This document shows, piece by piece, positions 3,101 to 37,148 of a stretch of DNA of 43,465 nt; positions within the stretch are counted from its first letter, which is position 1, and each line of letters begins with the position of its first letter. This DNA is from Malassezia furfur (taxonomy: Eukaryota): assembly GCA_052055015.1 (NCBI GenBank), contig JBQJIT010000045.1. One strand, given 5' to 3'. The notes under the pieces are model-generated. The model saw nothing but the letters and a program-made list of their open reading frames with translations. It did not search any database and had not been told where the DNA came from. Position numbers and translations under genes: made by a program.

Positions 3101-4557
3101 ATGATGGAAGACGCGCTGGTCGCGTTCGTGACCAAAGGGTCACGACGTGCACCAAAAGTCGCGCTGTCTCATAATGTACCTGGTACGTGATGCATCTCAT
3201 GTAGCCGGACGCGGTCTTGTCCTTACCGCGGACGTGGAACCCGGCGAGGTGATTCTGGAAGTACCTTCGAATGTCCTGCTCCACCCGAGTTCCTTGGCGA
3301 AACAGGGTCGACTGACCAGCGCTCCACGCAAAGCATACAGCACGGGCAAGCCATCCAAAAACACACTATCAACTCATCAGATTGTCTCCTACGCGCTCTC
3401 ACAATGGCGGTGTACTGGGCGCCCCAACTGTCCCCTTTCTCCCTTCTTGCACTCGCTGCCAACGGAATTCCCCACAGCACCGCTAACCTGGCAAGTGGAA
3501 TTCGGCCCCGACGAGAAGCTTTTGCTGAAAGCTCTCTCCTCTACTGCAAAAATTCGTGCGGATAAAGTGTTCAGAAGTTTCGAGCGCGACTGGAATCGAC
3601 TCGTCGATCTGCAGACAACGTCTCCGGACGTGCTGGAAGAAATTTGGGCATGTATGAAAACCAATACCCCTCGAAAACCACTTGTACGCACGGATCTACT
3701 CTGGGCATGGCTGTGCACCAATTCGCGTTGTGTATATATGGATTTGCACTATGAGCGGCATGAGGACAATTTTACCTTGGCGCCTTTGCTCGACATGGCC
3801 AACCATACCCCTGTCCCCTGGTTGGAGTGCAAAGTGCGCTACGACGCGCGTGGTGGCCTTGAGCTGCTTGCTCCAAACCATCCACGTCCTGACGATGCCG
3901 GTCGGATGGGCTGGCGAAAAGGTGATGAAGTATGCATCACCTATGGCGCACACGCAAATACGACGCTGCTGGCTGAGTACGGCTTCGTTCTTCCGCGTGT
4001 CCTACACCCTAATGACGAGCATTGGACGGGGAATCGATATTGCGATGTGCTTCTCGATGCGTCGGTCGAGGCACTCTTCGGAGAAGACGAAAACGGAACA
4101 TGGAAGCGCGAGCTCCTGGAAAAGGAGGGCTACTGGGCGTACGTTTCCCCATTCACACAGCGATTATTCGATGCACCCATATCCAGCGCCTGCGCATCCC
4201 TCACACCGTCTGCATACAGCGCTGCGTCTACTCTGCATGAGCGTTGACCAGCGTGCAAAACGTCCACGACTGGAGGAAGGGGAAGAGGCACCCCGGTCGC
4301 GGCAAGATGCCGAGCGTGTATGGATGCTGGCGACCCATGGCAGGACCGCCCGGATTTCACAAGCCAATGAGGAAGCAGTTCGAGCCACATTGTCTCAACT
4401 ATGTGCGACAGTTCAAAAAGATCATGAGCGTCGCCTGCAGGCGTTGGATACGCTACCGCGATCTGATTCAGAACAGATGGTGAGGCAGGTCTTGGTTGAG
4501 GAACGAACTATTGCGGAGCTGGTTCGTCAAAGTGCAGCGTGTGGAGACGAATGGTGA
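3101..4557 (+). CDS. SET-domain protein lysine methyltransferase (Rkm2/SETD4-like); introns 3183-3204 and 4139-4160 (22 nt each)
   Basis: GRGLV, WAWLCTNSRCVY, LAPLLDMANH and ITYGAH.N..LLAEYGF motifs. The second intron is required to join ORFs 3147 and 3682 (YWADYSMHPYPAPAHPS). An unspliced alternative start exists at ATG 3174. Confidence 0.8.
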
Positions 4558-11765: not shown

Positions 11766-13641
11766 ATGGAAGGGGAGACGCGCCGCGTGCAGCTTCCGCC
11801 GCGGTCCGAATACCGCATTGAACTTGATGCCGGCGAGGCACTCTCGGTTCGGTTCGTAGCAGATCCTTCGGGACACTATGGCGATGCAGAAGTGTTTGGC
11901 GCCCCGCTGATCGGTGGGACACAGGAGCGTTGGTACACGTTTGGCAACGAGGCCAAGTTTGCCATCTCGTCGTGGGGCGGCGCCGAGATTGAGCTGGCAG
12001 GGACTGCCTCAACCGAGTACATGGCGGACGAACCATCACCCGTGTACACGTACTATACCAATCTCCATCTCAATCTCGAACGCGCTCGTATTCGTGCGCG
12101 CGAACAACTGCGTACGGACAAGAACCTCGTCCAGTCGCTCAAGGAGCAGGACGTGTCCAAGACAGAGGCAGTGCCCTCCTATGATGACCCGAATGCTCCT
12201 CCGCAAAACGAACTGTACCATGCTGCAGGACAGGGGCCTCGGCTGATGGTGGTGGGCCCCGAGTGTGCTGGGAAAACCTCGCTGATCAAATTCCTCGCAA
12301 ACTATGCGATGCGCTCGCCTGCACTCGCGAGCATTGAGGAAGGGCTTGAGGCTGAGCGAAAGGCGCAACAGGATGAAGAAGAGGCACTGTCTGATGACGA
12401 AGACGGACCGTCCGCGCGCAAAGCGACAGACGGTGAAGAGTTTAGTGAGGTGGCGGGGTGGTGGCCCATGATCCTGGCTCTCGATCCCTCGGAGGGAGCA
12501 GTGCCCGTGCCTGGGTGTCTGAGCGCCATCCCGCTGCGCCCGACTCCGGTCAACTGCCTGCCGTCTCCGTCGCCTGCCTTGCCATATGGTGTAACGCCGC
12601 AAACAACAGGCGCTCTGCCCCCTACGGTGTCCACGGCTGAGAGCGTGATGCCCTTGGTGCACTGGCTGGGCAAGCAGAATGTACGCGAGAACGAGCAGCA
12701 CACCCGTCGTGTTGTTGACTGCCTTGCGCACCAGGTCGAGAAACGTATGATTAAAGACACTCGCGCGCGCATGTCGGGTCTACTGCTCGACATGCCTGGC
12801 GTTGTGACATCCGATTCGCGTACGCGTTACTCATACATCCAATACTGTGCGCGCGCCTTCAAGGTGGACATGATCGTGGTGCTGGGTCATGAGAAGCTCA
12901 ATTTGGAACTTTCCAAAATTTTTGCTGCGGATCCTACTGGGAGCGCCATCCAGATTGTAAAAATGCCGAAATCGGGAGGGGTGCGTTTTGCTACTAACCT
13001 AGGCCGTGGATGTCGACGAAGTGTATCGCCAAAAACTACAGGACCTCCAGATCCGCTCCTACTTTTATGGAATGCAACCTGCGATCCCCCAGGACGTTGG
13101 GTCGGCCGACGGCGAGGAAGGAACAGCGCTGTACGGCGGTCGTGCGCCTTTGCCAGGACACGCCGAGCCCCTTGGTGGTGTGCCTACGCTGAATCCCTAC
13201 TCGTCGTCCATCCCGCTCGATCTCCTGAGCCTTTTCCGCGTCGGGCAAGGTACGTCTGCCCCATTCACACAGACCGCATTGCCCCATCATCGGCACTCCC
13301 TATTGGGGCTGAGCGTGTGGTGTCGGAACTTCAGGTGGTCAAGTTGGACCCCGTTAACTCGTCGAGTGATACCTCTTCGCTCCTGCACTCGATCGTGGCT
13401 CTGGTGGATGTGCCCAGCGATGTGGAATTGAATGAAGATGGTCTGCCTTCGGAAATGTCGCTGCTACGCGCAGGCGTTCTGGGATTCATCCATGTCTCCG
13501 AAATCGACACCAACCGGAAAAAGATGACCGTCTTGTCGCCCAAGCCCGGCAAGCTCCCCACAAAGACGGCATTGATTGGCGTACGTATTATGGTGAATGA
13601 ATCTATTAACATGCCAGAACTTGCACTGGCAAGATGCATGA
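11766..13641 (+). CDS. CLP1: Clp1 polynucleotide 5'-OH kinase / cleavage-polyadenylation factor; introns 12981-13002 (22), 13250-13272 (23), 13581-13617 (37)
   Basis: EYRIEL..AEVFGAPL, P-loop GPECAGKTS and LDPSEG. Splicing restores KSGG|AVD..IRSYFYG, Q|DRIAPSSALPIG and ALIG|NLHWQDA*. Confidence 0.92.
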
Positions 13642-17299: not shown

Positions 17300-17678
17300 A
17301 TGGTGCGTGGACGCGCGGGACGCTAATGCAGGGAGCCGGTCCTCGTTTCCCGTACCCCAAGGAGGTCTGGTCGCCTGCTGGTACGTGTGTGCACTGATAA
17401 ACAGGTGGCTGGTGGTCTCGGTACGCCGCACTTTCCCGTGCTCTTACACAGGCCGAAAAACTGGGCGAGCAACACGTTCGTCGTCGCGACCGGCATTGGC
17501 ATTGCGGCATACGGTCTCTGGAACTTGAGCAGTGAGCGCGAGGTATGTCGACGTGACTAACGTAGTTCCGTCACCAGGCGCCTCTGCACCCCATCCCCTC
17601 GCAGCTTGTGCGTGCTATCAACTAACCCAGTGGGCGCGCCAGTTCAAGGACGGCGAGCTGAAGGTGAAGCCCGAGTAG
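17300..17678 (+). CDS. 82-aa mitochondrial complex I accessory subunit, fungal NUUM-type; 6 exons, not in the ORF track
   Basis: Exons 17300-17302, 17332-17380, 17405-17420, 17452-17542, 17566-17607 and 17631-17678 give MGAGPRFPYPKEVWSPAGGWWSRPKNWASNTFVVATGIGIAAYGLWNLSSEREFRHQAPLHPIPSQLWARQFKDGELKVKPE. It has the family's YPK.VWSP.GGW..P.NW..NT motif and one TM helix. Confidence 0.88.
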
Positions 17679-34475: not shown

Positions 34476-35845
34476 ATGGCGTGGACGACGCCGGCGTACA
34501 CTGTGCAGCAGGATGCACAGGCCGTGCGTGTGCGCATCGAGTGCGCGGAAAGCAATGTACGTGGTAGACTCACAAAGGCGGACACAGCCCGCGCTGCAGC
34601 AGATGGTACGACGTTCGGCTGCTTCGTCGATCCACTCTACCTGCCGTACGTGAGAGTGCTCAGACAGCCTGAAATTCCCAGAGCCCGTGGGCGCCCTGGA
34701 AGTGATTGTGCCGCTCGACGCATCGAGCAGCGGCGAAAGTTATACTTACGATGCAACTCAGCGGACACTTGAGGTCAAGCTGACCAAGGCCGTGCCAGGC
34801 ACCCACTTCCCTGGGTTGGAAGAACTCCGACCGCAGCTCCTGTCGGATGTCGAAATGCATGCGTTCGAACGCGATGCAGAGCGGATGCAGCACGAGGAGC
34901 AGACAACAAGCACGGAGAGCACCTCGTCAGGACCCACCACAAATGCATCCAAGCCAACGTACCCTGTCGGCCTGCTGTGTCAGCCCCTGAATTCCAAAGC
35001 GTACGAAGACGTCGTCGCAGGTGGACGTGTCCCCTACCTGGACGTGGTAGATCCCCAGCATACCTCACCTGCCGACCGTCTTCGTGTTGCTCTCCGCCTA
35101 GAATGCGAAAAATGGGACGAGGGGATGTACCTGTATGTGCGCATCCTAACACAGTGATGCCACGGTGGATTTCGACGAGCAAGTCGCCGAACTCTTGCAC
35201 ATGCCCCTGCGCCTTGCTACGACTCACCCAAACATTGCATCAGGCCCACTTCCGAATGACGACCGCGCGCTGCTGTTCCTTGCTCAGCTCCTCTACGCTT
35301 ACCTGTACGAAGATCGTATGTCGCTGCACGATCCTACGCCCGAGTCGGCCTGGACGGTGATCAAGCTCACGCGCTGTCTTGCATGCTGGACAGACCCACT
35401 GGAAGGTACAGGTGACCTGCATCACACACTCTGTGCCTCCTTCCGGCGCACATTGACCTATCCATTGTACCGCAGCCTCGCGGCGTGTGCGCAAATCTGC
35501 CGAGATGCTACAGAACTCCTTTCCGAGTCACCACGCGATCGTATCCTGCATATACTGCACGCACTCGATGCCTGGTTTGCTCTAGCACCGACCGGCACTG
35601 GCCTTGCCGAGCAGACCACCACCGTGCTGTCGGTCGTGTGGGACCAGTGGATTGCGCCGCTCTCCACATGGGTCGCGCACGGAGCCACAGATGCGCACTT
35701 TGCGCAGCTGCGTGAGGCCTTTGCACAGGTCACATTCACGCCTGAGGTGCTCTCCGAGATTGAAATGCCAGGTGACTGGGACCTTGCCGCGCTGAACGCC
35801 GCGGCCGCCGAGGCCCGTGCGGAGGGCGAAGGCGCATTTGTGTAG
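34476..35845 (+). CDS. SHQ1: Shq1 H/ACA RNP assembly chaperone (CS + SHQ1 domains); introns 34557-34577 (21), 34646-34667 (22), 35133-35154 (22)
   Basis: TP.Y.V.QD, P.YLP|LKFP, LTKAVPGTHFPGL, KWDEGMYL|D, LYAYLYEDR...D.TPESAWTV.KL and RRTLTYPLYRS motifs. Confidence 0.9.
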
Positions 35846-35858
35846 TTTCTTCGTATGC

Positions 35859-37148
35859 ATGCTACCTCCACCTGCGCGGAAGCGTGCAGCGTCCAACGAT
35901 GCGCGCATCCTACAGCGACCGCGCGCTGAAGACGTGCGGCTCCCGGTGGTACTTGAGTACCACCGTAACATTGCACGGGCGACGGCCGTGGTGTGGGATG
36001 CAACGGAGCCCGTGCGGTGTGACGTCGCCCAAGGTACATTAACACTGCGTGCCGGCGAAGCATGCAATGTCCTGCCACTCGACTGGCCGCTGGTAGACGG
36101 CGTATACACAGGTGAGGAGCAGGACGGTGCACAGGTTGTCACGCTTCCTGCCCACACCTCGCCGCCGTTCGCGCTTGTACCACAGTCGCCGTGGCTGCAG
36201 TTCGCGTCGGAGCAGACACCGGTTCTGGCCTTGGCGTGCGCTGCGTGCGGCAGCACATTGATGCAATGCAGCGGCGCAGCGACATTGCGTGCTCTTCCTT
36301 CCGAAAACTGGGAAGAGCTCGTGGATGCGTGGATGTGCCATGGTGACCAGCGCTTGAATGCGAGTGTCGTTCAAGGACGTGCGGATGTCGAGCCATCACG
36401 CACGCCGGAGCTCGACCAGATTTGGGTTGGTTCACTGCTGTTGCGCATGAATAGCGCGCAGCTGATGCATGTGCACATTGCAGATGCCAAGATACCCGGG
36501 CCATGGGAGGTACGTTCCGGGGGGGTATTCCCACGGACCCGCAGAAAGCTCGCACTGGAAACCCACCGTGCGCGGCTGATACTAGGGTCCTAGATTTTGC
36601 ATTCCACATACGCCGCGGCGCAGAAGCCCCCCTGCGCCGTGGCCACAATGAATGCGACACTAACGCAGGGCGACGCATTCCCCGCTTCCTGTTCCCAGTG
36701 CTCAGCAGCGCTCGGGGCCGTGCCAGTCCGCGATGCGCCGAGCGCCGCGCAGCTGCTGCAGACGAGTGTGGTACCGGTGCCACGCACACTGTCCTACACG
36801 AACTATTTCTCTGAGATCCTTGCCAACTATCTGGTGGAACAGGCTGACCGGCACGCCGTACACCACTTCCTCATCCAGGCACTTGGTGCCGAACCCCAGC
36901 CCCGCCTCCTCGTCTGGGTCTTCCAGCCGATCGTCGAGGTGTGCACCACCCAGCGGATGGCCGTATGCAAAATTCTGTACCATACGAGCACGGCCCCCCC
37001 GCAGGTGCCCTACCACCCCCTCACGCTGCCGGCGGCGCAGTGCGATCTGCTCGCGCAACTGCTCATCGAGAGCAACGCACTGTACCCTGCGGCGCGCAAA
37101 AAACTCGCGCAATGGCATGTAGGATTTTTGCTGCGTACCCTTTTCTAA
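35859..37148 (+). CDS. IPA1: Ipa1/UBE3D-like (HECT_2) protein; 159-nt intron 36510-36668 hosting an H/ACA RNA
   Basis: CAAC..LRALPSENWEELVDAWMCH, a second CxxC after the intron, LLVWVFQP, KILY, and ESN..YP...W.VGFL. Donor GTACGT and CACTAAC-GCAG acceptor keep the frame. Confidence 0.85.
36535..36662 (+). ncRNA. Intronic box H/ACA guide RNA predicted to pseudouridylate U2 snRNA U42 (snR81-like specificity)
   Basis: Hairpin 1: GGACCC/GGGTCC lower stem with pocket GCAGAA + GATACTA, complementary to U2 UAGUAUC-[UG]-UUCU; degenerate H box AGATTT at 36592. Hairpin 2: TGCATTC/GAATGCG lower stem, pocket CACATAC + CACAAT, 12-bp upper stem; ACA at 36657-36659. Confidence 0.8.

Follow-up and report, generated by a model that had tools for sequence, protein, structure and literature searches.

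The 43,465-nucleotide (nt) stretch of Malassezia furfur DNA analyzed here (GenBank assembly GCA_052055015.1, contig JBQJIT010000045.1; hereafter the window) carries a two-exon IPA1/UBE3D gene. The computations place an H/ACA-shaped RNA gene in the spliced intron of this gene, and its most conserved residues are complementary to the U2 small nuclear RNA (snRNA) around the uridine equivalent to pseudouridine 42 (Psi42) of yeast U2. Positions below are those of the window, and all features of the host gene and its intron lie on the plus strand.

Exon 1 of the host gene (35859-36509) starts with an ATG codon, and exon 2 (36669-37148) ends with a TAA stop codon (37146-37148). Both match the Pfam domain HECT_2 (PF09814), with E-values of 1.8e-13 and 4.9e-19, respectively. 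The intervening intron (36510-36668; 159 nt, phase 0, GTACGT...CAG) has GTACGT at its 5' end and CTAACGCAG at its 3' end, and its removal fuses two open frames in phase 0 (...IPGPWE + GDAFPASC...). The closest protein found was P0001 of M. furfur CBS9595, which is 92% identical over exon 2 and whose annotation carries the same exon junction; the next closest was a protein of M. japonica (58%). These two matches identify the window as part of a Malassezia furfur-like genome and the host gene as an IPA1/UBE3D ortholog. The available portions of two reports (PMC7236606, PMC9385686) tie IPA1/UBE3D to the endonuclease that forms mRNA 3' ends.

An earlier interpretation of this DNA, made from the letters alone (the sequence-only reading), had described the intron as a hairpin-hinge-hairpin-ACA structure, and the predicted fold bears this out. 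The minimum free energy of the 159-nt intron is -68.7 kcal/mol, compared with a mean of -51.4 kcal/mol for shuffled sequences (z = -4.27), and none of 200 shuffles folds as well. The elements follow one another as hairpin, AGA hinge, hairpin and ACA, with an internal pocket in both hairpins.

The predicted mature H/ACA RNA extends from 36533 to 36662 (about 128-130 nt); its 5' end is approximate, and its 3' end was placed at ACA+3 from H/ACA architecture. In hairpin 1, the lower stem is formed by GGACCC (36535-36540) and GGGTCC (36585-36590), as indicated by both fold and covariation. The 5' pocket above it consists of GCAGAA (36541-36546) on the 5' side and GATACTA (36578-36584) on the 3' side. 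Between these strands lie the upper stem and loop (36547-36577), which include a CCCACC motif common to the relatives described below and a stem base that covaries. The H box, AGATTT (36592-36597), follows hairpin 1 after a single U; its first and third positions are A and its sixth is T. Hairpin 2 (36598-36656) has a lower stem at 36598-36604/36650-36656 and a 12-base-pair (bp) upper stem at 36612-36643, and the fold places the strands of the 3' pocket at 36605-36611 (CACATAC) and 36644-36649 (CACAAT). The ACA box (36657-36659) is located 13 nt after the upper stem of hairpin 2 (14 nt in the Agaricomycetes) and directly abuts the branch site CTAAC (36660-36664), which is followed by the 3' splice site AG (36667-36668). 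The upper stem of hairpin 1 is separated from the AGA of the H box (36592-36594) by exactly 14 nt (36578-36591), the value given in the sequence-only reading. Measured from the target uridine to the box, the spacing in hairpin 1 amounts to 14 nt for the window, compared with 15 nt for 45 relatives; both values lie within the rule of approximately 14-16 nt for H/ACA RNAs.

The two strands of the 5' pocket are complementary to U2 in the manner of a pseudouridylation guide. GAUACUA pairs with UAGUAUC (7 bp), 5' of the target U, and AGAA (36543-36546) pairs with UUCU (4 bp), 3' of the unpaired UG. All of these are Watson-Crick pairs, and the unpaired UG is bordered by a formed pair on each side. 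In the sequence-only reading, the pocket coordinates and the 7+4 pairing were correct. The yeast U2 substrate, as given in the supplement of PMC8096250, reads ...GUAGUAUC, then the target U, then GUUCUUUUCAG. In the same source, the 5' hairpin of snR81 guides modification of U2 U42 and its 3' hairpin that of 25S U1051, in agreement with the earlier designation of the target as Psi42, served by the 5' pocket of snR81. According to the available part of the yeast study of De Zoysa et al. (PMC6049503), Psi42 is still made with 5+5, 4+4 or 3+5 pairs, such that 8 bp are enough, and is lost at seven pairs or on breaking a flanking pair. The 4+7 pairing of the window pocket lies above this minimum and conforms to the flanking-pair rule.

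The expectation by chance was evaluated with descriptors of two stringencies. For the strict descriptor, GATACTA and an AGAA located 20-230 nt upstream of it both had to match exactly, each of the two stems (upper and lower) had to have 4 bp or more, and an ANA had to occur at 13-16 nt. This descriptor matched the real window once; when the whole window was shuffled 1000 times with its dinucleotides preserved, no match was obtained on either strand, and chance is excluded as the source of the pocket. The loose descriptor, in which G-U pairs and one mismatch were permitted, returned 28 background lines in 263,536 bases (both strands), and because of this background a match to it is not evidence by itself. 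One pocket-like GATACTA, 2 kb upstream in the relative L007, was rejected as a chance occurrence; it is situated in an exon beside an ordinary short intron.

The distribution of the element was analyzed further in metagenome contigs, which were scanned with an alignment of the host protein and yielded 53 IPA1/UBE3D loci (L001 and onwards). Four of them (L001-L004) are Malassezia-like, with M. japonica as best match among named proteins (40-56% identity), and the others are Agaricomycete-like, with identities of 85-87% to Hebeloma, 72-90% to Russula, 86% to Rhizopogon, 75% each to Agrocybe and Armillaria, and 37-60% to others. A complete homologous element occupies the orthologous intron in 48 of the 53 loci, which is every locus that spans the intron. 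The loose descriptor detected the U2-type pocket in 45 of the 53, on the host strand and just 3' of the conserved exon, while the elements of L001, L002 and L043, whose geometry was missed by the script, were identified by eye. Among the remaining loci, the contig of L040 stops after the 5' half of the element, and those of L042 and L046 stop before the intron. In all cases, including that of the window, the element is in sense orientation in the intron that follows the CHGDQ-motif exon.

The last two loci, L008 and L032, are spliced transcripts. They lack exactly the element-bearing intron and the neighboring intron of their near-identical genomic partners, L010 (intron 3256-3650) and L033 (intron 3252-3636), respectively; the exon segments of L032 and L033 are 97-100% identical. 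The host segment is thus spliced out in two Agaricomycete transcripts. Within the metagenome collection, L008 and L032 stand out as Hebeloma-like and Armillaria-like transcripts.

Conservation was assessed in an alignment (A5) of 43 distinct sequences and 307 columns. Only 23 columns are invariant, and they cluster in the guide strands, in GG/UCC of the lower stem, in the H-box residues A-N-A and in both A residues of the ACA box. In the 5' guide strand the last two A residues of AGAA are invariant and the preceding AG nearly so, and in the 3' guide strand the pattern U-GAUAC-N-A is invariant. The sixth guide position distinguishes the two lineages: Malassezia-type sequences have a U that pairs with A36 of U2, and the Agaricomycetes have an A, G or C that is always mismatched. 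Total pairing nonetheless remains near 11 bp in both lineages, because the Agaricomycetes compensate on the other strand. Their 5' strand extends to as much as AAAGAA and forms four to six pairs with UUCUUU, alongside five contiguous pairs plus one distal pair on the 3' strand; the Malassezia-type pairing is 7-8 plus 4. Among the three Malassezia-type guides the entire GCAGAA is invariant, which would be explained if the U2 of this species continues as UUCUGC; such a continuation would lengthen the Malassezia pairing on this side from 4 to 6 bp. Variants of the ACA box were observed in one group of Agaricomycetes, as AAA in L015, L017 and L021 and as AUA in L019 and L023, the rest of the RNA being conserved.

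The stems, by contrast with the guide strands, covary. Across the 29 proposed pairs, 88.5% of the alignment cells are paired, versus 36-45% in six slid controls, and 17 of the pairs change on both sides. None of 500 shuffles reached the observed covariation score, although the slid controls are the fairer comparison, because shuffles ignore relatedness. The lower stem of hairpin 1 (A5 columns 6-10/198-202) is paired in 100% of the sequences; one of its pairs shows 13 CG-to-UA exchanges, another occurs as five pair types, and covariation is seen in both hairpins. Conservation across orthologous IPA1/UBE3D introns, which the sequence-only reading had named as a check on its proposal, is therefore established for 48 loci, with invariant guide strands and covarying stems.

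Two further structural features were recorded in the alignment. The apical loop of the 3' hairpin (36624-36631 in the window; A5 columns 264-271) contains a nearly invariant nnAG, which resembles a CAB box (ugAG); its sequence is UGAG in the Russula-like members and (G)AAG in the window. In addition, the H box and the 3' hairpin of Russula-like sequences are separated by an additional perfect hairpin (A5 columns 212-238; for example, at about 3520-3545 in L038), which is not present in A5 in the Malassezia type or in the L012 group.

Membership of the Malassezia element in the same family as the Agaricomycete elements was examined with a covariance model that describes the 5' hairpin, was derived exclusively from 38 Agaricomycete sequences and was run against both strands of 56.8 kb. 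The three top matches were the elements of L003 (29.6 bits, E = 6e-7), L001 (14.5 bits, E = 0.006) and the window (13.3 bits, E = 0.012). A match at 12115-12168 of the window was dismissed as a chance match to coding sequence without GAUAC. A sequence-only hidden Markov model (HMM), made from 40 Agaricomycete sequences, also recovered the L003 element (E = 0.0018). The window element is without some 110 nt of the three-way upper part found in the Agaricomycetes, which lowers its model score. Its host, intron, architecture and guide nonetheless agree with those of the Agaricomycete elements, and the CCCACC motif is common to both; taken together, these five points led to acceptance of its membership in the family.

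The sequence-only reading had also pointed to Rfam, where neither an snR81 nor a scaRNA family was matched at the thresholds tried; Rfam presumably contains an snR81 model. At the Rfam gathering score, no family was detected in the window or in 20 of the loci. Three Rfam matches near the window element (E = 2-8) were discarded as chance matches, none of them being to a snoRNA family. The accessible parts of the literature on Malassezia snoRNAs, on UBE3D and snoRNAs, on basidiomycete intronic H/ACA snoRNAs and on Cryptococcus U2 H/ACA RNAs hold no report of an RNA in the IPA1 intron. An intronic H/ACA RNA that appears in the available text of a 17-RNA fungal screen (PMC8216456) is a different RNA, located in a vacuolar sorting gene and directed at the small ribosomal subunit. 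We read the IPA1-intron elements as a new, unannotated basidiomycete family of H/ACA RNAs that would do the job of the 5' hairpin of snR81.

From these comparisons, we consider the intron likely to encode a box H/ACA guide RNA, about 130 nt long, for the U2 position equivalent to yeast Psi42. Several points weigh against this assignment. The U2 sequence used for comparison is that of yeast, and its conservation in this species was assumed; an Rfam scan of the window did not find the U2 gene of this species there. The 5' strand side of the window pocket contributes just four Watson-Crick pairs. The H box, AGAUUU, lacks the last A of ANANNA and is degenerate, as the sequence-only reading had stated; among the relatives its sixth position varies, and its first and third A residues are invariant. 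The minimum free energy folds of the whole introns of L001 and L003 are no better than those of shuffled sequences (z = -0.94 and -0.26, respectively). In the family searches, the covariance-model score of the window element is marginal, given rough E-values and the chance coding match next in rank at 12.1 bits. The sequence-only HMM gives the window element an E-value of 1.4, although it is the best match in the window, and no Rfam family matched the window element or that of L038 at E<=10. Finally, the ACA box abuts the branch site, such that assembly of the ribonucleoprotein (RNP) and binding of U2 or BBP might interfere with one another. This abutment (ACA-CUAAC) is found in the window and in L003, and L001 has ACA-UG-UACUAAC. 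Proximity of the ACA box to the branch site is not a feature of the family, because the Agaricomycete element and the 3' splice site are about 76 nt apart (76 nt from the ACA box in L033).

These observations were weighed against three other explanations. The element may be a genuine H/ACA RNA whose real or main substrate is not U2 but ribosomal RNA (rRNA) or another RNA, recognized through the 3' pocket, or else another site recognized through the 5' pocket. Such a role would accord with 3' pocket strands that are well formed in all lineages, including the conserved AACAA and CUAC of the Agaricomycetes. The same strands, however, differ between Malassezia and the Agaricomycetes, as fits a less constrained or lineage-specific function, whereas conservation in the 43 sequences is highest in the strands of the 5' pocket, which fit a known guide-dependent pseudouridine site with nine invariant pairs. 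Another principal substrate is therefore judged improbable.

The complementarity to U2 could instead belong to an intron structure that controls IPA1 splicing in cis and gives rise to no stable RNA; the pocket might serve as a decoy for U2, to which it is complementary, or as a pseudo-branch site. It is true that there is overlap between GAUACUA(C) and the complement of the stretch of U2 that recognizes branch sites, and that the ACA box directly adjoins the real branch site. Yet a decoy requires neither two hairpins nor A-N-A and ACA boxes at 13-15 nt from the upper stems, nor a split pairing that spares UG, all of which are conserved, and the Agaricomycete distances show that the contact with the branch site is not family-wide. 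We attach very little probability to this explanation. As for a chance fold with chance complementarity in an unusually long intron, GC-rich sequence does fold easily and the loose descriptor has its 28 background lines. The absence of the strict pocket from all 1000 shuffles, the z-score of the fold and the 48 complete orthologous introns with covariation refute the chance explanation, which retains practically no weight.

Yeast snR81 is the product of an independent gene, in contrast to the intron-hosted RNA of the window. The two box H/ACA RNAs are alike in their target uridine, in pocket geometry with UG unpaired and in their guide strands (3' strand GAUACUA(C); 5' strand ending in ...AGAA). 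When compared by eye with the supplement of PMC8096250, the 5' hairpins resemble each other further in a GGAC/GUCC lower stem, in ...AAAGAAG followed by a G+C-rich upper stem, in GAUACUAC..GUCC, in an AGA located 14-15 nt after the upper stem and in CCCAC in the upper part. This comparison, made by eye and without statistics, suggests common descent of the two 5' hairpins. The differences are that the yeast guide forms 14 pairs (PMC8096250) and the window guide 11, and that similarity at the level of Rfam is not detectable. The 3' pockets also disagree. In a by-eye comparison with the yeast 25S-1051 substrate, both target-adjacent pairs are lacking with the window strands CACAUAC/CACAAU, as they are with AACAA/CUAC of the Agaricomycetes, and the 3' pocket does not fit the printed stretch of yeast U2 either. 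The target patterns predicted for the 3' pocket are GUAG-UN-UUGUU (core) in the Agaricomycetes and AUUGUG-UN-GUAUGUG in the window. The proposal of an unannotated, intron-hosted guide of snR81 type thus stands as regards an intron-hosted H/ACA guide with a 5' pocket for U2; judged from the pocket strands and the Rfam search, the label "snR81-type" applies to the 5' pocket only. In the available text of Canzler et al. 2018 (PMC5824354), the snR81 family (HACA_26) is traced only within Saccharomyces.

Guides with the same or a neighboring target are known elsewhere. Vertebrate SCARNA4/ACA26, the 5' stem of non-eutherian SCARNA15 and Drosophila scaRNA:PsiU2-38.40.42 guide modification of the same U2 uridine (vertebrate U41), and SCARNA4 restores Psi42 to yeast strains from which snr81 is deleted, according to the part of PMC5733568 that was available. 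These animal guides are Cajal-body RNAs with CAB boxes, while the window RNA has only the apical nnAG hint, and the likeness drawn here is one of function. The same portion of PMC5733568 describes Schizosaccharomyces pombe pugU2-43/44 (SPNCRNA.1709), another fungal H/ACA guide that acts on U2's branch-site recognition region. It differs in modifying the neighboring uridines 43/44, not the equivalent of Psi42, and in its genomic setting. The pugU2-43/44 gene reportedly lies downstream of RPC10. A parallel for the location is provided by the H/ACA RNA snR191 in the NOG2 intron, an intron that is kept in intron-poor fungi as a snoRNA carrier (PMC8476143, available text). The host gene is different in that case, and the target is rRNA as opposed to snRNA; IPA1/UBE3D is not reported as a host in the text of PMC8476143 that could be consulted.

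By analogy with known H/ACA RNAs, we infer a stable RNA, its protein partners, its processing route and the modification of U2. The RNA would be transcribed within the IPA1/UBE3D pre-mRNA and bound co-transcriptionally by Cbf5, Nop10, Gar1 and Nhp2. Splicing and debranching would then release it, and exonucleases would trim it to the protected core. Since the ACA box touches the branch site in Malassezia, the debranched 3' end would need trimming by only a few nucleotides; for the same reason, RNP assembly and recognition of the branch site would share the same few nucleotides. In the mature particle, GAUACUA would pair with UAGUAUC and AGAA with UUCU, and the U between the two guide duplexes (yeast U42, vertebrate U41) would be offered to Cbf5 for conversion to pseudouridine. 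The modified residue would lie just 3' of the branch-site recognition sequence of U2. The 3' hairpin probably constitutes the second structural half of the RNP.

The analysis widens the original proposal from a single intron to the same RNA in the same intron across Malassezia-like and mushroom-forming (Agaricomycete-like) fungi. If the guide function is correct, it would explain why one intron has remained 159 nt long in a genome of 22-37-nt introns, and it would supply the Basidiomycota with a candidate guide for a spliceosomal modification that ranks among the most conserved. The RNA family itself, which is unannotated and has a fixed host intron, could be annotated in hundreds of genomes, and the window element, with its 56-nt 5' hairpin, offers a small natural H/ACA RNA for study.

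Immediately upstream of the host gene, and in the same orientation, lies the gene for SHQ1 (34476-35845, +), an assembly chaperone for H/ACA RNPs. The call is based on the Pfam SHQ1 domain (E = 1.9e-20) together with pieces of a CS domain, and the TAG stop codon (35843-35845) is located 13 nt before the IPA1 start codon. The SHQ1-IPA1 tandem is also found in L001 and L003, and in M. japonica SHQ1 and HECT_2 are annotated as a single fused protein. The SHQ1 domain was not found in the four Agaricomycete IPA1 proteins that were examined. The abutting ACA box and branch site, together with the SHQ1 neighbor, provide test cases for snoRNP assembly and splicing that share one short intron.

A more comprehensive scenario can be composed from these elements, in which the window element would be a true ortholog of the snR81 5' hairpin, and the U2-Psi42 guide would be older than the split between Ascomycota and Basidiomycota. 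The guide would have become locked in the IPA1/UBE3D intron of the sampled Basidiomycota and compacted in Malassezia, such that the branch point sets its 3' end, and it would form one tight unit with SHQ1. In this joint form the scenario is rather doubtful; were it true, an H/ACA RNA and its assembly factor SHQ1 could come from one transcription unit.

Elsewhere in the window, a rough screen of both strands, with selection by eye, gave approximately 20 strong candidates for short introns (22-37 nt). These have GTACGT-like donors and branch sites of the form CTAAC, CTCAC, CTGAC, CTTAC or TTCAC, located 3-8 nt before the AG, and they agree with the ultra-short introns described in the sequence-only reading. 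The connection made there between the guide and the reading of such degenerate branch sites by U2 is speculative. A second long intron candidate (17381-17565) was dropped, as its fold (z = 0.33) is without a structure signal. At the 3' end of the host gene (37020-37148), the annotated C-terminus of P0001 follows a different reading frame from that of the window, and the C-terminus of the M. japonica protein agrees with the window. This mismatch of frames suggests an indel or a mis-called intron in the annotation of P0001.

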